Assembly: GCA_964486045.1 (NCBI GenBank)
Contig: CAZALK010000008.1
Span: 1-64,000 of the forward strand
Source of the DNA: an uncultured archaeon
GTDB taxonomy: Archaea; Asgardarchaeota; Lokiarchaeia; Sigyniarchaeales; SOKP01
Direction: 5' to 3'
Length of the DNA: 64,000 nucleotides
The notes below the pieces were generated by a model. That model saw only the letters and a list, made by a program, of their open reading frames with translations. It made no database searches and was not told where the DNA came from. Shown one piece after another: positions 53,583-63,544 of this stretch. The translations under genes and the position numbers were made by a program. Position 1 is the first letter of the stretch. Each line of letters begins with the position of its first letter.

Positions 53583-54107
53583 TTAGTCTTTTCTTTTATT
53601 TTTTAGCACACTTTTTTCTGCTTCTTCTAAAGAATAAAAAAGATCTCGACCATTGTCATACTTCTCAACGTAGCAGAACCTTAGAAAAAATAAACTTTCA
53701 GGGAAATATTGAATGACTTGTATTTTTTTTATTAAAAGTGAAGGATTTTCATCAATTTTCCCCTGTATTGTTGAAACTACTTCAGGTTGTAGTTTTCTGA
53801 ATTCACTTACAAAAGATAAAAACTTATTTAATGGATCTTGATTTCTATCAACGTTCTCCGTGATAGCATGAGCCCATCCGTATGATAAATTCCAATTAAA
53901 TTTCATTTTAAGCCATTCACCAAAATGTTTGAAAAGAGGAACTCTTACCTCAACGATCGAATGTAATTCTAAACATGAATCATAACCAGCCAAAAACATT
54001 GATAATGATCTGATTGATTTGTCTGGAATGAACATACTTGTACGTTCTTTAATTCTGTCAATCAGATCAAAAATATTTTTCCTTTCAAAATAATTTTTCA
54101 TAGTCAA
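53583..54107 (-). CDS. Hypothetical protein (bacterial-looking helical family)
   Basis: 174-aa ORF directly downstream of the displaced polB 3' end, with the pattern IKERTSMF...SIRSLSMFLAGY...FGEWL...GWAHAI...FVSEF. Confidence 0.7.
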   Translation of the reverse strand: MTMKNYFERKNIFDLIDRIKERTSMFIPDKSIRSLSMFLAGYDSCLELHSIVEVRVPLFKHFGEWLKMKFNWNLSYGWAHAITENVDRNQDPLNKFLSFVSEFRKLQPEVVSTIQGKIDENPSLLIKKIQVIQYFPESLFFLRFCYVEKYDNGRDLFYSLEEAEKSVLKNKRKD

Positions 54108-54148: not shown

Positions 54149-54588
54149 TTAGAAAAAAGCATCCATCTTTTTAATACCTTTAACTTCATCAAATGTAATT
54201 CCGAGTGCATCCAACACTTGTTCTAATGCGGATGTCAAGAGCTCCTTATATTTTTTAGTATCAATATCTTGGAGTTTGGCTAATTCTAGTGCTTTTGCTC
54301 CAATAAGACCTTTACTTTTAATAAAACTAATTTTTTCACCCTTTTGAAATTCCCTTTTAGTAATTTTTTTCAATTCGAGAGCAGCTCGGACATGTTGTGG
54401 TATAACCTTAGTATCATTTTTAAGAGCCTTTTTAAGACTCATATTTATCGCGTAATCATTCAAGTTAAAGTATTAGATTTTCGAATTTTTTTGATATTAT
54501 CTCTTACGATTCCAATTATTTCATCTTTAACATTAGTAAATTCTTCAATTTTTGTGATATTTTTTAACATTTCAATTAAAATTGAAAA
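54149..54588 (-). pseudogene. polB: Displaced, frameshifted 3' fragment (~150 codons) of family B DNA polymerase
   Basis: FSILIEMLKNITKIEEF...KKIRKSNT/FNLNDYAIN...IPQHVRAA...QDIDTKKYKELLTSALEQVLDALGITFDEVKGIKKMDAFF aligns colinearly with the PolB C-terminus at 60608-61060. There is a one-base frameshift near 54468. Confidence 0.9.
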
Positions 54589-54968
54589 ATTGTGAGAAAA
54601 TTCCCCATATTTGAGATTTGGACAATTTATACAAAACGTTTTTAAATCTGTGATAAAAGATCAACCTATTTATTTTAGAGAAGATTCATAAACTTTACCT
54701 TGACAAAAATATCAAATCTTCATTTTTGTAAATTCTTTTACGTGCTAAAATAAAGTATTCGCTCTCAAACTCTCTAACACACCGTAAAAAGATAATATTT
54801 AAAATGAACAAAAAATCATTCTTAGACTGCTTCAGGGAGTGCACGATGATGGAAAAGTTGTTATGCGAAAAGTATAGAATGATAAAAATTAGAAAGGAAA
54901 TATTTAAACATCCGGATGAAAAGATGATGGGAATTAGAGAATTTTAGATTCCGCTTGACAAAAAATTT

Positions 54969-55859
54969 TCATTGATAAAAAGGAATAATTCTTGCATAGT
55001 TAATATCTAAAAAATGCAAAATCAATTTAAAATCCTTCAAATTCAGAGTATATATCTTATTCTCTGAATTAATCAATAATTCACATATAAAAAAATCTCC
55101 TAGATTAAAGCAATATCGCGTGTGAAAATCATATTTTCTCTTATTAGTATTAATATCTATCAATTTTTCTACTGTTTTATAGAATCGGTCATCTAAAATT
55201 AATTTATTTTTCTCACAAAAACCTTGGGCTTCATTAAGAATAGTACTAAATACTTTTTTATATTTCTTAGTTAATTGTTCTAATTTAAATTCTCTGGCAT
55301 TGCATATTTTCTTCGCACAGCTATTAATATATAAAAATTCATAACAAAAAGTATTTTCATTATATACGATTTCCCACTCCGATCTTGGACATGGATATGT
55401 TAGGTTATTATTCCATTTAGAGATTTCTTCTTGAAACTCTAATAAATCATTAACAATAATATTAAAAGCTGATTTTACTCTATGAATTTGCTTTTTTTCA
55501 TAATTTGGATCAGATTTCTCTACAGGAATTTTATCAATACAGTTTCTTATAATTGTAACAATAGAGGTACAGCGATTTTTTAATTGAGGGCTTCTTTTTC
55601 TCTGGATATATTGGTTAATATCAATCCAAAAATCATCAACATTAAATTGTTTCTTTTTCGAATTTAATTTTTCAAAAACTATTTCCCTTAATTTAAAAAA
55701 TGAATTTAAAATTACTGTTCCTATCTCTGATTTTAAAATCGGATTAATTAAAATGTTATTTTTAAATGTAATAAATTGATTTTTTATTCTGTCTTTCTGT
55801 GAGGACTTACCATATAAATAATACACCAAAACACTTGTATCGGGGATTATAGCAATAAT
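54969..55859 (-). CDS. PIN-domain nuclease with a large helical insertion
   Basis: The frame upstream of TTG 55829 reads IIAIIPDTSVLVYY (PIN motif-1 Asp), and the C-terminus reads LGDFFI...IYTLNLKDF. A start at ATT/ATA behind GAGTGA is required. Confidence 0.75.
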   Translation of the reverse strand: MIAIIPDTSVLVYYLYGKSSQKDRIKNQFITFKNNILINPILKSEIGTVILNSFFKLREIVFEKLNSKKKQFNVDDFWIDINQYIQRKRSPQLKNRCTSIVTIIRNCIDKIPVEKSDPNYEKKQIHRVKSAFNIIVNDLLEFQEEISKWNNNLTYPCPRSEWEIVYNENTFCYEFLYINSCAKKICNAREFKLEQLTKKYKKVFSTILNEAQGFCEKNKLILDDRFYKTVEKLIDINTNKRKYDFHTRYCFNLGDFFICELLINSENKIYTLNLKDFKLILHFLDINYARIIPFYQ

Positions 55860-55915
55860 TATACATCACTCATCTCTTTCTATTATTGCTGTTATTTGCA
55901 TTTTATATTATTCAT

Positions 55916-57130
55916 CTAAAGTTCTATTTTTTCTTTAAAATCAACGAATATATGATGATCTTCTCCTATAATTTTGATCGATTCAATATCGTCTTTTTCA
56001 GAAAATTCATCAATTTCTTCAATTAATTTAAAATCAGTAATTTTTGTTTGTATCTCTTCAATTTTTTTTGATTCAGTTGTCTTCTCTCTTCTAATAATTT
56101 GTTTCTTTTCCTCTTTTTTTATACTTCTTAACTCATTTTTAAATTCTTCATAGTCTATTTCCAGTTCTGGCAATTGATCCTTATAATCTATGAATTCAAG
56201 TGAATTTTTTAATTCATTAAAATGTAATCTTAATTTTTCAATAGAGGTTTTATTCAGAGGATAATTTAATTGCAAGGATTTTAGAAAGAATTTCAAAAAC
56301 TCCTTTTTTGAATCAAGACTAGTTAAGTGAGTTTTTTCAAAAGTAAGTACTTCCAATAATTTATATTTCAAGAATTTAAACGATTCATCTGGATCATCTA
56401 TTGAAATGTTATCTATAGTGAAGACTAAATGTTTTTTATTAATTTGACTTTTAGCTTTAATACCTTGACGAATTTCTTCCAAAATTGAATAAAAATGCTC
56501 TTTCTCTATGTTTTTTTCATTTCTACAGAATAAATTCAAAATACCATCAAGATTGCTAAATAATTTAATGATATAGCCTTCATCTAAGCTATAAATCATC
56601 TTTAATATAACTTCTTGATTAAAGAATTTATTATGCGCTATTATTTGTTCTTTAATAATGGATTTCTGGGTAAATTTAGGCTTTAAGTAATAACAAAGTT
56701 GAATAAGATCAGTCAAATGTTCATGATCATAATGTACTGATAATATTTTAATTAGTTTGATTTCCTTTTTGAGGTCAGAATTATTTATATAGTTATCTTT
56801 TAATATACTTTCAATTTCTTTCTTTCTTTCAGGATTTATTTGATATAATCTTTTAGAATCTATAGGAATAAAATTCGAGTTTTTCTCGAATACTTCTTCG
56901 TAGGAAATGAGTTGCTCAGTAATTAAGGGTGCAATATTCGTTTGAAAATTAACTGCAAATGGACCTAGATTATATGAAATGAAATCAAGATCAGATTCAC
57001 CCTTAAGTTCAAATATTTCCTCTAATAAGAACATTAATTTCATTGCTCTTGTTATTAAGGTAGTGTGTACTTTCGAATAATACAATATCAATAAAATCTT
57101 TTCATTAAAATCTAGATTACTTAAGCTCAT
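55916..57130 (-). CDS. wHTH antitoxin-like protein (SocA/Panacea/YwgA-like N-terminus) with a helical and acidic C-terminal extension
   Basis: ILLILY...ITRAMKLMFLL...FISYNLGPFAVNF...LITEQLI pattern. Overlaps the upstream gene by 14 nt. Confidence 0.6.
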   Translation of the reverse strand: MSLSNLDFNEKILLILYYSKVHTTLITRAMKLMFLLEEIFELKGESDLDFISYNLGPFAVNFQTNIAPLITEQLISYEEVFEKNSNFIPIDSKRLYQINPERKKEIESILKDNYINNSDLKKEIKLIKILSVHYDHEHLTDLIQLCYYLKPKFTQKSIIKEQIIAHNKFFNQEVILKMIYSLDEGYIIKLFSNLDGILNLFCRNEKNIEKEHFYSILEEIRQGIKAKSQINKKHLVFTIDNISIDDPDESFKFLKYKLLEVLTFEKTHLTSLDSKKEFLKFFLKSLQLNYPLNKTSIEKLRLHFNELKNSLEFIDYKDQLPELEIDYEEFKNELRSIKKEEKKQIIRREKTTESKKIEEIQTKITDFKLIEEIDEFSEKDDIESIKIIGEDHHIFVDFKEKIEL

Positions 57131-58454
57131 TTTCTATTTCCTCCTTTTTCTTTTTTAATAACTCCCAATTATTCATTTTTAAATTTGTACTAAATATTTC
57201 TTTTATAAATTCTTCTAAATCACAATGCAATTGGCGATCTACATTATAAAAATTATGGTTCATCAAAATAATATTTTGTTTGGTCTTCAATTTTTCCTTT
57301 AGAGTCTTTACTGCTTTTCCCCTGAACTTATTATAAGCATTTACATCAACTGGATTTTGGAAATATATATCAAATGCTCTCTGTAATGATTTAATTCTAA
57401 AATCATAACAACTTGAACATTTACAATTATAGTCTAAACTAGGTTTACGCAATAAATCCTCTGAAAACCCTCGATCATTATAAAATTTACCATTTCTTTG
57501 AAAATAAAATCTTCTGGTTCGAGGAACCATAGCAGGAATATTTACATTAAGACCAGGATACCCACTAATTCTTATAATTTTTTTAATATTAGGATTTATT
57601 TTATCAATAAGTCGTGAGCTACAAACACCAATATAAAACACGAATAATTTAGCAAATACTGAATTGAACTTTTCGATTATATCATAAAACTCCTTCATTT
57701 CCTTTTTACTGGCACTAATCTCATTGAAATCTACAATCCATAATCCTATTTTATTAAAGAACTCATATTTCTTTATTATTTCAGTAATATCATAATGATG
57801 TTTCATATAATCTTTTAGATTTAATACAATCATGGGAATATGGTTATTTAAATTATATGTCTTGACATATTTAAGAGATAGATTATATAATTCCTCAATA
57901 GCTTTTTCATTAATACTATTTAATTTTTTAAAAAAAGAACCTTTCTTAGAAATTTTTATTGGAATTGCTGGTAAAAAAGGAATAGTAAAGCAAGAAACTT
58001 TGAAATTATCATGACTCTTAAATAATTTCTTTTCAATTAAAGTCCTCGGTCTATTTTTGTATTTCTCAACAAAATCAATAATCTGAATTGACTCTGATAT
58101 TTCTTTTTTAAAATATTTTTCTAAATTAGCACCTTGAAAATCAGAAACAAATAAACTATAATCTTTTAGAAGTTTTTCTTTTGTTTCATCGTTTAGAGAA
58201 GGAGTTTGAGGATCTATCAGATAGGGGCGAACATTATAATAATTCTTATATAAAATAACCTCCTTATTAAGACTTTCAATTGATTTTATAAAAGATTCAT
58301 CAATTTGCTTCTGTTTGGTTTTTTTGTCCTCTTTGAAGAAATGTCTTTTAGGAACTAGAAATCCCTTGCATAGAGAATGCTTTAAATAGAGATTTAATCT
58401 TTCAATTTCCGTCTTAAATTGAAGTTTATAATATATATTTGACAATTTAATCAT
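57117..58454 (-). CDS. TGT-like (TIM-barrel) protein with a C-terminal CxCxxC...H zinc site
   Basis: YLIDPQT near the N-terminus and RRFYF...CKCSSC...MNHNFY at the C-terminus, resembling the tRNA-guanine transglycosylase Zn subdomain. Confidence 0.55.
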   Translation of the reverse strand: MIKLSNIYYKLQFKTEIERLNLYLKHSLCKGFLVPKRHFFKEDKKTKQKQIDESFIKSIESLNKEVILYKNYYNVRPYLIDPQTPSLNDETKEKLLKDYSLFVSDFQGANLEKYFKKEISESIQIIDFVEKYKNRPRTLIEKKLFKSHDNFKVSCFTIPFLPAIPIKISKKGSFFKKLNSINEKAIEELYNLSLKYVKTYNLNNHIPMIVLNLKDYMKHHYDITEIIKKYEFFNKIGLWIVDFNEISASKKEMKEFYDIIEKFNSVFAKLFVFYIGVCSSRLIDKINPNIKKIIRISGYPGLNVNIPAMVPRTRRFYFQRNGKFYNDRGFSEDLLRKPSLDYNCKCSSCYDFRIKSLQRAFDIYFQNPVDVNAYNKFRGKAVKTLKEKLKTKQNIILMNHNFYNVDRQLHCDLEEFIKEIFSTNLKMNNWELLKKKKEEIENELK

Positions 58455-58890
58455 TTATTTGTTCTTTTAAGATATATCTTATCTTCTGATAATTCGCTTG
58501 GATAAGATATTTACTTTTTTTCGGCTTTAATTCAATGATATTTTTATCTTTTGATACAATTATTAATCCTATCCCTTCGTTAATTAACATATCTCTATCA
58601 ACTTTATCTTCATAATCTTTCCAAATAGCTAATGAATTATAAGGAATTAGAACCCGATTTCCTAAAGTTTGTCCAAATCCTTTTTTCCAATTAAATACTT
58701 TAAATTCTAATGCGTGGGCAGTTCCAAACCGATTATTATACTTTCTTAGTTGAACAAGATCGATTCTTTTTTGATTATTTTTAACTTCCTTAAAGATTAG
58801 GGTTTTGTCGCCTTCTATCAATTTTAAATTCCCGATATAGGTATTCACCATTTCAAATTCTGAAATAATTTGTTGATTTTTGACCAGCAT
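58447..58890 (-). CDS. PD-(D/E)XK restriction-endonuclease-fold protein (MmcB/sce7726-like)
   Basis: E...RIDLV...ALEFKVFNWKKGFGQ...GIGLI. Overlaps the next gene by 8 nt. Confidence 0.7.
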   Translation of the reverse strand: MLVKNQQIISEFEMVNTYIGNLKLIEGDKTLIFKEVKNNQKRIDLVQLRKYNNRFGTAHALEFKVFNWKKGFGQTLGNRVLIPYNSLAIWKDYEDKVDRDMLINEGIGLIIVSKDKNIIELKPKKSKYLIQANYQKIRYILKEQIND

Positions 58891-59069
58891 TAATTAATTA
58901 TATTCTATTCAAACTTAAATAATTTCTATTTTAATTAATAGGAGTAAGGAAGATTTATGGTTTCAATTTAATTAAGTGAAAAAGATTTAGTGTCAAGTCA
59001 TTTAAATAGCAGTTAATTAGTTTTTTAATTACTAATAAAATCAAAGTTGAGTTATGAATAATAAAAAAA

Positions 59070-60557
59070 ATGAGGGAAGAAAGGGAAATTAAACGAAACC
59101 ATATCAATACTTCATGTAGTAAAAATGAGTTAACAAAAAACACAGGAAAGGGTAATTATGGGACAATGGATAATTTTTTTGAAGATATTAAATCAGGTTC
59201 TATAGAGGTTGAAAGAGAATATTTTACCAGTAAATCAGGTCTTCCTTATGATGAGGAAATAGTAGTAAAAGATCCAAATGGGATTGTTTGTAAGGTTAAA
59301 ATTGGAAGTATAGAGAATTCATGGAAAAACTTAAAAGTTTTATCAATCAACAAATTTAATTCACCGAAATTTGGTTCACCGAAATTTGTACCGATTATAA
59401 ATTTTTTAAAAAGTGTAACTTCATTTTTATTAAAAATTCGGTTATCAGATGGGAGACAAATTGTCTGTAGTCAGAATCACATTTTTCCTAAAATTGTAAT
59501 TTCTATCAATTTTAAATCATATAATTCTCCAGAAAGCTTCTTTTCAATTAAATATGTGAATGCTAAAGAACTAAAGGAGCGAGATAATTTGTTAGTCTTT
59601 CACAAGATTCCATTGACTTCAAACGTTCCAAAATATATTTTTATTCCTAAACTTCTTAATTGGGAGCATAAATGGATTGGAATAAAAAGAAGTGATTATG
59701 TAAAATTTTCCTATAGAACGAATCAAAGAACTAATAATCCTTTAATACAATTAATAAATTCAAAATTTCAATATTCCAAGGTGGGAAAAAAATATAGAAC
59801 ACTTTGGTCAAATTTATCAAATTCGGAAAAACTTTTTCTTGAAATGGAAGCGAAAAGAAATCACGTTGAAATCTTGATAAAGATCCATGAAAATGTTGGA
59901 TTTTGGTATTCATCAATAGTTCCATTAACAGATGATTTTTTTAGATATTTAGGTTGGTATGTTGCTGAGGGGTCTACAGACAAGAATAGAGTGACTATTT
60001 CTCAATCAAAAGAAAAAAATTATAATAATTGGATTGAAATTATTGATCTCCTTAAGCGATTAGGGTTCCCTGTAAGCATTTGCGCGCAAAATATGATCAG
60101 AATAAATTCAAATGTCTTAACTGAGCTAACAATTGAATTATGCTTAAAATTGGCTCAAAACAAGAAAATTCCTTTAGAATTAATTATGAATAATAGTAGG
60201 ATAAAGTCATTTTTAGAAACATATTATAAAGGAGATGGTTGTCAATTAAGAGGGGAATTAAAGAAATATACAACCACAAGTCAGCAATTAAAAAATGATT
60301 TAGTAAGCATTCTTGGAGCGACAGGACATTTTTGTTCTATTTGGTATCCAAGTTCTTCAGATAATTGTTATCGTATAACCGAAACTGATGGAAAACATTA
60401 TAAAAGAAAATACTTAGGTCTTCTTAAATTCAACAGTACAACTCCCATAAGGATTAAGTCCATAAGAAAAGTTAAAAAAAATTATGATATATTTAATTTA
60501 AAGACTGAAAATGGTTGGTTTGTCTCAACAAACGGAATTTTAGTCCAGGATTCTTAA
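59070..60557 (+). CDS. Free-standing intein-like (Hint + LAGLIDADG) protein lacking canonical splicing residues
   Basis: Block A GLPYDEEIVV, block B IRLSDGRQIVCSQNH, block C YLGWYVAEGS, block E FLETYYKGDG, block H TTSQQLKNDL, and blocks F/G IFNLKTENGWFVSTNGILVQDS-stop. Confidence 0.88.
   Translation: MREEREIKRNHINTSCSKNELTKNTGKGNYGTMDNFFEDIKSGSIEVEREYFTSKSGLPYDEEIVVKDPNGIVCKVKIGSIENSWKNLKVLSINKFNSPKFGSPKFVPIINFLKSVTSFLLKIRLSDGRQIVCSQNHIFPKIVISINFKSYNSPESFFSIKYVNAKELKERDNLLVFHKIPLTSNVPKYIFIPKLLNWEHKWIGIKRSDYVKFSYRTNQRTNNPLIQLINSKFQYSKVGKKYRTLWSNLSNSEKLFLEMEAKRNHVEILIKIHENVGFWYSSIVPLTDDFFRYLGWYVAEGSTDKNRVTISQSKEKNYNNWIEIIDLLKRLGFPVSICAQNMIRINSNVLTELTIELCLKLAQNKKIPLELIMNNSRIKSFLETYYKGDGCQLRGELKKYTTTSQQLKNDLVSILGATGHFCSIWYPSSSDNCYRITETDGKHYKRKYLGLLKFNSTTPIRIKSIRKVKKNYDIFNLKTENGWFVSTNGILVQDS
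59360..59388 (+). repeat. Short tandem duplication (TTCACCGAAATTTG x2, 15-nt period)
   Basis: Encodes SPKFG-SPKFV in the Hint N-terminal region. Confidence 0.75.
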
Positions 60558-60607
60558 TAAATTCAAAATTAAATCTTTTCTTATTTTCAATCATTATATG
60601 TGATTTT

Positions 60608-63544
60608 TCAAATAAATCCATCTAATTTTTGAAATTCAAGAGTTTCTAAGCTTGAAATATCAATACCAATACTAAAAGCATCAACAAACTGTTCTAGAGC
60701 TGATCTCAATAGTTCTTTGTATTTTTTCACATCAATATCTTGCAGATTTGCTAATTCTATTACTTTAGCTCCGATTTTATCTTTACTCTTAATAAAACTT
60801 ATCGTTTCGCCTTTTTGATATTCTTTTGCGGTTTTTTTTTTAAATTCTTGAGCAGCTCTAACATGCTGTGGTATTGTTTTTTTATAATTATCAAGCTTCT
60901 TTTGCATAATTATGTTAATTGCATAATCTTTTAAGTTGAACGTGTTGGGCTTTCCGATTTTTTTAAAATTTGAAATAATAAGCTTTTTGATATCTTTCTT
61001 TGCTTTTAAAAATTCATCATAGCTAGTGACCTCTTTAATAATTTCTAATAAATCACTGAAAGCTTTTTTAATAAATTCTGGTGTGTTTTTCTTCTTTGCT
61101 ACAAGGCCTTTCATGTCAATATATTTAGTATCCTTATATACTCCAAGATAATTCTTTTTTCTATCAGAAAGAGCTAAGAATTGATAAGTTTTTTCCTCTT
61201 CCAAGTCAAGATCAAGGGTTTTTTTACTCCAGTCAGTTATTTCACTCAATTGTTCTTTTGAAGGGTTTAAGAGGAAAACAGAATCTGTATCCCCATATAA
61301 AACCTTAATCCCTATTTCTTCAGTTTTTTTTATTGTTTGTTTAATAGAATATTGCCCTATTCCCGTGATGCTTTCTGCTACTGGTAAACAAAACAACGGG
61401 AAATTTTGAGACCCAAAAACACCAAAACTTGCGTTAACAAAAACTTTAAGCGCTTGTTGAATAGTTTGATTATAACTTCTTTGTTTTTCTGTTGAACTTT
61501 TATCTTCTGATTTAGGTTTAAAATACTTAACTCTTATATCCCTGAAAAATCCAACAACATAGGCAAAGATCCCCATCTTTTGAGAGCAAATATGGTATGG
61601 AGAGCCTTTTACTAAATTATCTCGATCTTCTTTATGAGGACAAATAACTGTTTCATAGGAAAGATTGTATTCCTTTATTATTGATGGATATAGACTTGCG
61701 AAATCCATAACAACAACATCAAAATGAATTCCAGGAACAGGTTTTATTACATATGCCCCTTGGAATTTCTTATCGTTCGCGCTAGACATCATTTTTCCCC
61801 CTTTCTTAAGCTCTGAAATCTCAGATCGCCGAGGGATTAAGTAATTCTTCCTACGGTGTTCAAAATGGAAAATATTTCGTATCCATGTTGATATTTGCCT
61901 TCTAACCATTTCATGGACAGGCATTTTAGTTATCCGGCATAACAAAATGATTAAATTCCAAACTAACGAGTTGTTAAATTTTGTCAGTTCTAAGGTTAAT
62001 AAAGAATCTTTCAGGTTATACCAGGAAAGGATATTATAATCCATATCTTGGATTTCTTCCTCATGCTGATATTTTTCCTCTCCCAGAAGAGCAGCACTAA
62101 TAGCATTCAAAGACGAACTTTCATAAGCACCTCCAAAAGCGTATCCAGAGATGCTTCTATTGAAAAATAAATTAAACACGTCAATGTGAATTCCACTCCT
62201 TAGTTCACATTCTGCTTTGGTCATAATACCAAACCCACGTTTAACTTGAATAGGATTAAGGTCTTTATTAACCTTTAGCCTGTCATTTGCCCTATGATAT
62301 AAATAGTTTAAATCAAAATTGTCTCCGTTAAATGTAATAACAACTGGATACTCCCACATTAGGCGAAATGTCTCTATTAGTAAACTTTTTTCAGATTTGA
62401 AGAAGATAACTTTCGCATCAGGAGGAAATTTTTCATGAGGTTTTGTATATTTGTAACCTTCCCTTTCTAGAATATAAACAAGTTTCAACCCATCTGTGGC
62501 AACAAAAGATATACTTATTACTTCCTGTTTGGCTAAGCGAGGGTCTGGAATGCCATGATCTTTAACATCCATACTTACCTCAATATCCATAGCCATACGT
62601 TTGACATCAGGGATTGGAGTAATGAAAATATCCAAAAATGCCTCAGAAAATTCTTGAATCTCGGGGGATTCATCTTTAAATAAATCTCTAAGCTCATTCG
62701 CCACTTTTTTGGAATCTTTATCGATCTTCTCAAAATCTATTTTTTCTAGCTTTCCATTTTTAATACAGTAAATAAGACCGGGGATTAACTGCCTATCGAA
62801 GATATAATTTAAATGATATCGGATATCAGCTTCGTAGGCTTTTTTTCCATTTTCTTCTAAAATAGTACGAATATTTGTCCCAGTGCCACCAATATTTGTT
62901 GGAGTTTCCCCATAAAGCTTTGTAATTTTAATTTCCTTATCGGATAATAAATCAAATTTTTTAATCTCTTCAAATCTTTTGAACCAAGGATATTCAGTTA
63001 ATTTAGTCTTTTCTAACTCTGAAATTGGCTCTTTACTTAAACAGTAAGGTTCATGGTCAGTGGTATCAATCCAAATTTTTATATCGTCTTCGTCTAAATC
63101 ATAGAATTTACAGTATGCTTTATTTTGCCCACCATCATAATCCACATCAAGCAATAACCCTTGATCTAAATTATCTACGATTTTTCCTGTTGCGATTAAA
63201 TAACGAATATATGTCGAAGTTACACCTTCTCTGAGTACTTTATCAAGTTTTACATTGCCTAATTTTAATCCAAAAGGTTCTTTGTTTTCCTTATAAAACA
63301 GATTTTTTGGAATTTCACCACTAACTAATTTTTCTTCAGGGGAAAACTTTTCAATATTTTTCTCTTTAATTGGTTCTGGTTTTTCAGCAGTTTTTTTTTC
63401 TTTAATTTCTTCTTTCGTGGTTACTTTTGCTGGTTCAATTTTCTCACCTTTTTTATCATCTACAAAAGAAAATAAGGATTTTTGCGCTTTGTCTTCAATA
63501 CTCTTCTTATTGCTTTTTTTTGGACTAGGCACTTTGTACACCAA
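60608..63544 (-). CDS. polB: Family B DNA polymerase (archaeal PolB1 type), intein-free
   Basis: Exonuclease motifs MDIEV, TFNGDNFD and YNLKDS. Polymerase motifs DFASLYPSII, QQALKVFVNASFG, YGDTDS, KKNY and PQHVRAA. Confidence 0.97.
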   Translation of the reverse strand: MVYKVPSPKKSNKKSIEDKAQKSLFSFVDDKKGEKIEPAKVTTKEEIKEKKTAEKPEPIKEKNIEKFSPEEKLVSGEIPKNLFYKENKEPFGLKLGNVKLDKVLREGVTSTYIRYLIATGKIVDNLDQGLLLDVDYDGGQNKAYCKFYDLDEDDIKIWIDTTDHEPYCLSKEPISELEKTKLTEYPWFKRFEEIKKFDLLSDKEIKITKLYGETPTNIGGTGTNIRTILEENGKKAYEADIRYHLNYIFDRQLIPGLIYCIKNGKLEKIDFEKIDKDSKKVANELRDLFKDESPEIQEFSEAFLDIFITPIPDVKRMAMDIEVSMDVKDHGIPDPRLAKQEVISISFVATDGLKLVYILEREGYKYTKPHEKFPPDAKVIFFKSEKSLLIETFRLMWEYPVVITFNGDNFDLNYLYHRANDRLKVNKDLNPIQVKRGFGIMTKAECELRSGIHIDVFNLFFNRSISGYAFGGAYESSSLNAISAALLGEEKYQHEEEIQDMDYNILSWYNLKDSLLTLELTKFNNSLVWNLIILLCRITKMPVHEMVRRQISTWIRNIFHFEHRRKNYLIPRRSEISELKKGGKMMSSANDKKFQGAYVIKPVPGIHFDVVVMDFASLYPSIIKEYNLSYETVICPHKEDRDNLVKGSPYHICSQKMGIFAYVVGFFRDIRVKYFKPKSEDKSSTEKQRSYNQTIQQALKVFVNASFGVFGSQNFPLFCLPVAESITGIGQYSIKQTIKKTEEIGIKVLYGDTDSVFLLNPSKEQLSEITDWSKKTLDLDLEEEKTYQFLALSDRKKNYLGVYKDTKYIDMKGLVAKKKNTPEFIKKAFSDLLEIIKEVTSYDEFLKAKKDIKKLIISNFKKIGKPNTFNLKDYAINIIMQKKLDNYKKTIPQHVRAAQEFKKKTAKEYQKGETISFIKSKDKIGAKVIELANLQDIDVKKYKELLRSALEQFVDAFSIGIDISSLETLEFQKLDGFI

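Follow-up and report, generated by a model that had tools for sequence, protein, structure and literature searches.

The window analysed here comprises 64,000 nt of contig CAZALK010000008.1 (GCA_964486045.1; Lokiarchaeia; Sigyniarchaeales; SOKP01). It contains an intact polB1 gene encoding 978 aa (60608-63544, minus strand), which segment trees identify as chimeric and whose best solved relative is Sulfolobus PolB1 (1S5J). A second copy of polB codons 829-977 lies beside it at 54149-54588 (minus strand) and is the sole extra PolB1 piece in the genome. The two copies, which the first-pass annotation had placed in the same orientation ~6.5 kb apart, are separated by 6471 nt and share 68% nucleotide identity over 422 nt; at the protein level identity is 62% across 109 aa and, in another frame, 41% across 41 aa. 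The distal copy had been read as frameshifted, and comparison with the in-frame relic of an independent assembly (L107) indeed reveals a 1-nt deletion at 54470/54469. Both tails are as originally described, with QKLDGFI ending the intact gene and KKMDAFF the relic; the latter type is the norm in relatives and was found, as expected, at empty sites. The relic had been seen as the displaced typical tail of the gene. It is of the ordinary KKMDAFF type, but it is a mosaic and not simply the old tail of this host. Its truncated start abuts a small-gene remnant (54578-54685, plus strand) with 84% nucleotide identity to C5:193047-193154, and a decayed copy of codons 706-828 was looked for in the spacer at 54590-54968 and not found.

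Between the polB copies lie a plus-strand ORF (59070-60557), encoding a splicing-dead, intein-derived LAGLIDADG endonuclease that is convergent on polB with 50 nt between the stop codons, and four minus-strand ORFs. The low GC content of the insert (24-28%, flanks mostly 29-37%), its mobile-looking cassette and the genome contamination estimate of 7.8% could point to an integrase-driven island that regenerated its att-site gene, to an unrelated paralogue fragment or to a misassembly. These explanations are largely refuted and we regard them as scarcely tenable. In agreement with the initial reading that no recombinase is present, searches of Pfam, NCBIfam, PADLOC and PHROGs gave no integrase or recombinase match for any insert ORF; no tRNA was found within the insert, neither near-exact att repeats nor an exact terminal repeat were found, and similarity between the copies is 68-72%. 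We reject an unrelated paralogue because the relic is orthologous PolB1 and groups with the allele L063, and recurrence of the same junctions in the independent assemblies L097, L103, L106 and L107 excludes a misassembly.

The four minus-strand ORFs had been described as a nuclease and toxin-antitoxin-like cassette. All four are present, but the defence label is weakly supported, with only weak matches to known defence or toxin-antitoxin systems (DarG 1.7e-5, AbiEi 0.003, and Panacea-like and TGT leads). Cargo gene 1 (58447-58890, 147 aa) has no Pfam or NCBIfam match, and its conserved D..E-x-K pattern, the sole basis for the assignment, suggests a PD-(D/E)xK nuclease. The product of cargo gene 2 (57117-58454, 445 aa) adopts a TIM-barrel fold with an invariant C-x-C-xx-C...H; fold searches returned generic TIM barrels only, and a tRNA-guanine-transglycosylase-like enzyme is a weak lead. 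The DarG match falls to cargo gene 3 (55916-57130, 404 aa), the N-terminal part of which may show a weak resemblance to SocA/Panacea-like or DarG-associated domains. Cargo gene 4 (54969-55829, 286 aa) matched no family and is under purifying selection when compared with L107.

The breakpoint in polB and the inferred target site

The foreign part of polB was initially thought to begin at 61060, which corresponds to a swap of the last ~150 codons. When compared with the naive allele L063, the window gene is 97% identical at codons 676-699 and 75% identical from codon 700, with codon 698 the last host-type site in the L063-like run. This places the actual start near 61445. The left breakpoint (codons 698-701) and the inferred target fall within 61420-61453 (minus strand), at the ancestral intein junction (61430|61429). 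The swap therefore involves ~278 codons, and it starts at the old intein site. The replacement 3' end occupies 60608-61447 (minus strand, codons ~700-978), and its QKLDGFI tail type is found in three genera. Directly upstream, a tract spanning codons ~590-699 (61448-61777, minus strand) shares 86-97% nucleotide identity with the nuclease-free L063, as opposed to 64-86% further upstream, and appears to have been picked up in an earlier host lineage. In L033 the foreign sequence sets in at codons 701-703, and in L106 at codons 702-704. A host-like patch is present at codons 721-780 of L032, and there is a second crossover zone at codons ~770-800.

The target motif reads VFVNASFG in the window allele and VFINGSYG in naive alleles. 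The polB end had been proposed to be recoded and cleavage-resistant; the target does differ, but through amino-acid changes as well and not by silent recoding alone. Among 451 columns invariant in 33 naive alleles of the genus, codon 705 is the only one at which 11 of 11 carriers differ, although the carriers share the element by kinship and their counts are therefore not independent. A Gly705 site is left open in none of the nuclease carriers; in G034, a carrier with Gly705, the site is occupied by a mini-intein. Ala or Ser at position 705 also occurs in 32 of the 100 nuclease-free alleles compared across the family, and distant Asgard inteins of this intein family sit at N-A|C junctions, so Ala is not resistant by default. 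Use of the Gly705 to Ala change as a marker of the element is valid within the genus and fails across the family, non-Gly705 alleles being common in other genera.

Origin and distribution of the endonuclease gene

The endonuclease ORF matches Pfam LAGLIDADG_3 and Intein_splicing as well as PADLOC HEase (2e-11). The predicted fold (a moderate model, pLDDT 60) resembles intein endonucleases and I-DmoI, with only 12-14% structural-alignment identity to PI-SceI. The window nuclease retains its catalytic residues and is under purifying selection, but has lost the residues required for splicing. E300, K365 and D389 are invariant in the free nucleases (two LAGLIDADG helices, acidic catalytic residues and the block-D lysine), and pairwise Nei-Gojobori counts yield a dN/dS of about 0.25 for the window gene (range 0.21-0.41 overall, mostly 0.08-0.22 in the nuclease domain). 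Both Cys1 and the terminal His-Asn are gone, the protein ending in ILVQDS as compared with IVHN-S, and every free copy whose start is aligned has Gly in place of Cys1. No zinc finger is found at the C-terminus of the window protein. An N-terminal CxxC...CxxC ribbon is present in two members only (P0005 and P0008).

The 13 free proteins of family f1 group in a single clade with 100/100 support, which falls within the in-frame polB inteins located at the same codon; the nearest relatives are Loki inteins with Gly before the junction. The parent-type intein sits in polB motif B (codon 705|706) of other Asgards. This phylogenetic placement shows descent of the nuclease from a polB motif-B intein; an AU test of G034 as a separate origin gave p=0.34-0.41. 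In the DNA-facing strands, 15-18 of 31 positions are identical to those of the inteins, meaning that retargeting is possible. Viral contigs searched with this query contained no relative, leaving a viral origin without support.

The same Hint-LAGLIDADG gene had been predicted to occur convergent on polB at other loci with variable cargo. It was found that free copies face the polB stop codon in 13 of 13 checkable cases, with one nuclease per locus, no clusters, and variable or no cargo. A decaying polB end of the ordinary type lies behind most of them; this relic was seen at nine loci and begins at codons 829-927, far downstream of the inferred cut (codon 705) and not at it. The unit has up to four parts: the substituted last third of polB, a free-standing endonuclease gene in inverted orientation, cargo in some cases, and the remains of a polB end of the ordinary type. 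Cargo is absent from L032, L033 and L098, and comparison of the loci indicates that it is variable and dispensable. The element had been portrayed as a gene drive for cargo. Cargo is indeed carried, but as a hitchhiker that several elements lack, so that its drive is a side effect. The independent assembly L107 shares its nuclease start and cargo with the window (95% nucleotide identity). Between the two relics, synonymous/non-synonymous codon differences number 0/11 for the first third and 17/5 for the last (Fisher p=2e-5), and on this comparison the right crossover appears to lie inside the relic. We infer that the window relic acts as the right-hand homology arm, with crossovers inside it.

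A gene that is always polB-linked, convergent and under purifying selection, with an N-terminal ribbon in two members, could have been domesticated. It might act like HO, allowing the host to switch polymerase tails with the relic as a silent cassette, or regulate polB through DNA binding or antisense action. We consider this very unlikely, as the distribution is patchy (3/54 genus genomes and 6/161 class genomes), the block crosses genera, and relics are truncated, frameshifted or nearly gone. Decay stages are represented by L106, L001, L164 and L131, with the nuclease broken or lost in L106, L131 and L164.

Separate trees of the polB body and 3' end are discordant, as had been predicted. In the tree of codons 85-695 the carriers scatter over host lineages, and the AU test rejects a single clade (p=5e-5). 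For codons 706-958, the tree places them in two clades, both outside the ordinary group. Carriers together with three nuclease-free alleles make up one side of a weakly supported branch; a clade of nuclease carriers alone is rejected (p=3e-5) because these three alleles nest inside. The relics group with ordinary alleles, that of the window with L063 (99/96), that of L033 with L072/L078 and that of L082 with L071, and in each case the same lineage is also the source of the polB sequence just upstream of the site. The element has moved between species and genera.

Two nuclease-free islands, L081 and L082, share cargo and tail (90% nucleotide identity) although their hosts are unrelated; in L082 Gly705 is retained and the left crossover falls 3' of the site. 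Along with the second crossover zone and the frequent non-Gly705 alleles of other genera, these loci would suit a two-armed island (polB left, relic right) that moves by ordinary homologous recombination and is selected for cargo or polymerase tail, the nuclease being a founding fossil or cutting elsewhere. We judge this to be unlikely: selection on the nuclease is purifying and its catalytic residues are invariant, several elements have no cargo to select, Gly705 is never left open in a nuclease carrier, and three carriers turn foreign no more than a few codons from the intein junction.

Proposed homing route and known counterparts

The locus probably represents a WHO-like homing element hosted by polB1, and every computationally runnable check proposed with the first-pass homing-island reading supports it. 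Judging from the sequence comparisons, the element most likely spreads by cutting other polB copies and replacing their last third. When carrier DNA meets a naive chromosome, the nuclease would cut the naive ...INGSYG... site. The left end would recombine within polB upstream of the cut, whereas at the right end the unmatched stretch would first be trimmed, followed by recombination in the relic, which is much closer in sequence to the recipient's own polB end than the diverged replacement is. This would give the recipient a working polymerase with an uncut, altered site (Gly705 to Ala/Ser plus neighbouring changes), the nuclease, and whatever stands between nuclease and relic. Repair resolving inside the donor's intact polB would transfer the resistant patch only. 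Nuclease and relic would decay later. Several findings speak against this route: Ala or Ser at position 705 in nuclease-free alleles, the Ala junctions of distant inteins, the far-downstream starts of the relics, the nuclease-free islands L081 and L082, the L032 patch and the divergence of the DNA-facing strands.

The polB element appears to work like the yeast WHO element while having arisen independently. WHO elements at FBA1 of Torulaspora and Lachancea also comprise an extein-less, intein-derived LAGLIDADG gene that lies downstream of an essential host gene, is sometimes inverted and has lost the C-terminal splicing motif (PMC7282813; bioRxiv 10.64898/2026.08.13.744650). In both systems the host 3' end is replaced, 5' and 3' trees are discordant, the target sequence is changed and decay is seen; a duplicated 3' fragment has likewise been proposed as the second homology arm of WHO (PMC7282813; bioRxiv 10.64898/2026.08.13.744650). 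VDE has been proposed as the source of WHO, which targets a different gene (PMC7282813; bioRxiv 10.64898/2026.08.13.744650), whereas the polB element derives from an intein of its own host gene, with the site apparently kept. The hosts (FBA1 and polB1) and kinship (VDE/HO and Asgard polB inteins) also differ, WHO has a C-terminal zinc finger that the polB element lacks, and the cargo of the latter is unrelated to WHO. WHO genes occur in clusters, with many fragments starting near the cleavage site, in contrast to the single copies and far-downstream relics at polB. A literature search that took in few subscription journals found no archaeal WHO-like element, and it found such a lifestyle published only for the yeast WHO elements.

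The Asgard polB motif-B intein (G147, G155, G159, G038; P0012-P0014) belongs to the same Hint-LAGLIDADG family (45-47% identity to the nearest) and occupies the same inferred site, N-G|S-Y-G. It is in frame, retains Cys1 and His-Asn and interrupts the site, while the window gene stands alone, inverted, behind polB, and the element alters the site. Fragment exchange in fungal mitochondria, with cases known at atp6 and rps3, is organellar and involves intron-type enzymes without a Hint domain. In the Tremella case, mobile introns or endonuclease genes likewise supply a foreign part of the host gene and leave a duplicate (reviewed in PMC8393795). SegF, SegG and MobE are stand-alone phage nucleases that likewise cut hundreds of bases away and co-convert flanks, and the G034 locus, with its mini-intein and free nuclease, resembles trans or collaborative homing; these phage enzymes are of GIY-YIG or HNH type, and the portions of the accounts considered here mention no homology arm made of a displaced, duplicated gene end (PMC2988022, PMC2790892). 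Fractured genes with split inteins similarly tie a free-standing endonuclease to inteins and DNA synthesis or repair genes, but in that case trans-splicing rejoins the products of a split host gene (PMC2677866), whereas polB is whole here.

We consider it likely that a polB motif-B intein gave up splicing, moved behind polB and kept its target, becoming a third class of homing element that now drives a foreign 3' third of polB1, with substitutions in the active site and a new tail for clamp binding, together with arbitrary cargo, across Asgard genera. On the same reading, the stages would all be in view: the unbroken intein, G034 as a possible intermediate, elements that appear intact, patches that carry resistance only, and fossils. 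The coexistence of parent intein and derived element at the same gene makes the transition from intein to WHO-type element directly testable. The element has made the PolB1 of Loki-type Asgards chimeric, and movement of the polB 3' third across genera matters for polB-based trees. Motif B of family-B polymerases lines the nucleotide pocket. The target changes sit in this motif, and conflict with the nuclease may thus be altering the enzyme itself. More broadly, the element would offer multi-gene cargo an integrase-free route in archaea, and it provides indirect evidence of DNA exchange among uncultured Asgards.

Layout of the polB island and its cargo

The intact polB of the window (978 aa; 60608-63544, minus strand) has a second copy of its codons 829-977 at 54149-54588 on the same strand. 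This relic is split over two frames and shares 62% protein and 68% DNA identity with the intact gene; no other additional PolB1 fragment occurs in the genome. Between the two copies lie a 495-aa ORF that converges on polB and matches Hint and LAGLIDADG, and four ORFs that match no family with confidence. The island yielded no match to an integrase, no tRNA and no near-exact terminal repeat. The first-pass annotation had reported the duplicated 3' end, the Hint-LAGLIDADG gene and the lack of a recombinase, and all three were confirmed. It had also raised misassembly; an artefact or an integrase island is scarcely credible, being contradicted by independent assemblies. Directly behind the relic is a 174-aa gene of no known family (53583-54107, minus strand), missing from all related loci, L107 included. 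The corresponding position at the related locus L032 is occupied by genes for an HTH protein, a 181-aa protein and a PemK toxin, which makes the region behind polB a hotspot for variable genes.

Wherever the neighbour of a free nuclease copy could be checked (13 of 13 loci), the copy faces the polB stop codon, mostly within about 115 nt, and the cargo differs or is absent, as had been anticipated. In the window's family, the polB beside the free copy has an unusual tail, and at nine loci a fragment of the ordinary ...KKMDAFF type lies further on, with starts ranging from codon 829 to 927. Nothing separates nuclease and relic at L032, L033 and L098; L097 and L103 have a 341-347-aa gene there, and L035 and L036 a CxxCxxCC gene. 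The window's four genes follow the nuclease at L107 and, as far as the contig reaches, at L106. The four-gene cassette was found also without polB nearby and is therefore a separate module: at loci L122-L124 its gene order (147/436-446/390-404/299 aa) is kept, although the fourth gene was not called in L124, and one of these cassettes adjoins an SMC/AAA ATPase gene. It is a candidate for an undescribed defence or modification system. Of the earlier description of the cargo as nuclease/TA-like and defence-like, the four-gene cassette stands, while its resemblances to nucleases, TGT and Panacea amount to weak leads.

Descent and decay of the nuclease

Homologues of the nuclease are either free-standing genes or in-frame polB inteins between codons 705 and 706 (junction N-G|C...H-N|S-Y-G). 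Of 161 genomes of the class, a free copy is present in six and a full intein in four. A further 24 matches came from 400 genomes of the phylum; the 20 loci inspected were polB inteins, and wherever the junction was assembled it was preceded by Ala. Within the window's family, the 13 free proteins fall into a single clade (100/100), with Loki inteins that have Gly before the junction as nearest relatives. None of the free copies retains Cys1 or an intact His-Asn-nucleophile end, yet E300, K365 and D389 are kept in every one. Pairwise dN/dS ranges from 0.21 to 0.41; for the nuclease domain most values are 0.08-0.22. A moderate structure model (pLDDT 60) matched intein endonucleases and I-DmoI. 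In the nucleases P0005 (from L032) and P0008, the Hint domain is preceded by ~230 N-terminal aa that combine a zinc ribbon of the CxxC...CxxC type with a helical domain, a loose echo of the zinc finger in WHO and HO.

Decay is visible at several loci. The L106 nuclease is frameshifted and partly deleted, and L001 has about 27 nt of relic left. At L164 polB has the window's tail type, but the nuclease is missing and the relic is down to 26 nt. At L131 the tail is ordinary, and behind it lie a 90-nt remnant of the nuclease gene and 42 nt of relic. Domestication of the nuclease fits poorly with this decay and with the patchy distribution, and is very improbable. In another family, polB at L093 and L117-L118 (G034:C119:14189-18600) bears a nuclease-less mini-intein at the codon-705 site. 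Right behind this polB in genome G034 is an inverted 1020-aa free Hint-LAGLIDADG fusion, adjoining a 576-aa ORF that contains a Walker-A-like motif; no relic was detected up to the point where the contig stops. The locus is possibly an intermediate, or a case of trans-homing.

Chimeric polB and the probable target site at motif B

In a tree of codons 85-695, carriers are spread among different host lineages and a single clade is rejected (p=5e-5). The tree of codons 706-958, by contrast, places them, together with three nuclease-free derivatives, in two clades separate from the ordinary group. Three genera share the window's tail type. The other tail type has as its sister (95/95) a clade from a different genus; that clade includes G147, a genome that bears an intact intein, and is a possible source of both tail and nuclease. 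The window is 86-97% identical to the naive allele L063 over codons 592-699 and 75% identical from codon 700, and the last host-type site of the first stretch is codon 698; L033 and L106 switch at codons 701-704. The proposed exchange of the polB C-terminus thus stands, but its extent does not: not ~150 but ~278 codons were swapped, starting beside the old intein junction (61430|61429). Replacement tails have varied clamp-binding-like ends (QKLDGFI, QSTLF, QKKLF, IEKFF; 60608-60640 in the window), and a PIP-like QKSLFSF lies near the polB N terminus (63470-63490).

Codons 694-712 are invariant in 33 naive alleles of the genus. Codon 705, the only one of 451 invariant columns at which all carriers differ, is Ala or Ser in 11 of 11 carriers. 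The evidence is limited, since 32 nuclease-free alleles out of 100 family-wide are likewise non-Gly at 705 and distant inteins have Ala sites. Sulfolobus PolB1 has Ala at the matching position, so a polymerase with this change could still work. The G034 allele still has Gly705, its site being filled by the mini-intein. The window's clade is also changed at 703 and 707, the latter to Phe (61424-61438) from a motif-B Tyr found in 99 of 99 scored nuclease-free alleles of the family, which may affect fidelity. The nuclease-free clade L062, L065, L066 and L087 combines two element markers, Ala705 and Ile726, with an ordinary tail; its VFLNASYG patch lies within codons 691-750 of an otherwise ordinary allele, the pattern expected of a candidate resistance-only conversion tract without element transfer. 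Family-wide, the otherwise nearly invariant motif has Gly, Ala or Ser at 705 and Ser or Ala at 706; Ala706 suggests host escape, because the nucleophile needed by the intein would be gone. Other polB inteins, in L050, L059, L064, L069 and L121, occupy codons ~617 and ~753.

Probable homing through two arms

The relics cluster with ordinary alleles from the same lineage as the polB sequence immediately upstream of the site. L107 matches the window at 95% in its cargo and the start of its nuclease. The relics of both begin at one codon, but the genes downstream are different. Between these two relics the first third has 0 synonymous and 11 non-synonymous codon differences and the last third 17 and 5 (p=2e-5), indicating that the former drifted as shared junk and the latter diverged as working genes in different hosts, and hence a crossover inside the relic. 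Identity of the window relic to L063 is 93% in its middle part and 80-82% in its end part; before codon 550, no relative of the window's polB body exceeds about 82%. Judging by these identities, the island block would have passed through an L063-like host before reaching the window's host, in which case the relic would not simply be that host's own old end.

We consider a homing cycle probable. The nuclease would cut the naive motif-B site, and recombination would follow on both sides, in polB upstream of the cut and in the relic downstream of it, so that the altered polB end would be installed together with the nuclease and any cargo. This matches the model published for WHO elements at FBA1 (PMC7282813). 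The window element works alike but is not a member of the WHO family: it lacks the C-terminal zinc finger, its host gene is polB, its descent is separate and it forms no clusters. Looser parallels are phage intronless homing (PMC2988022) and fungal mitochondrial fragment exchange (PMC8393795); no archaeal report of such an element was found in the literature searched.

The main rival, that plain recombination between the two arms moves the island, is unlikely as the whole explanation. Three polB loci have element-type tails and no nuclease: L081 (genome G068), L082 (G041) and L083 (G050), the last ending at a contig edge. L081 and L082 each have a relic and, as cargo, two uncharacterised genes of 373 and 336 aa. 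The rival is supported by these two nuclease-free islands, which are 90% alike in unrelated hosts and one of which keeps Gly705. Homing and plain recombination may both be in operation.
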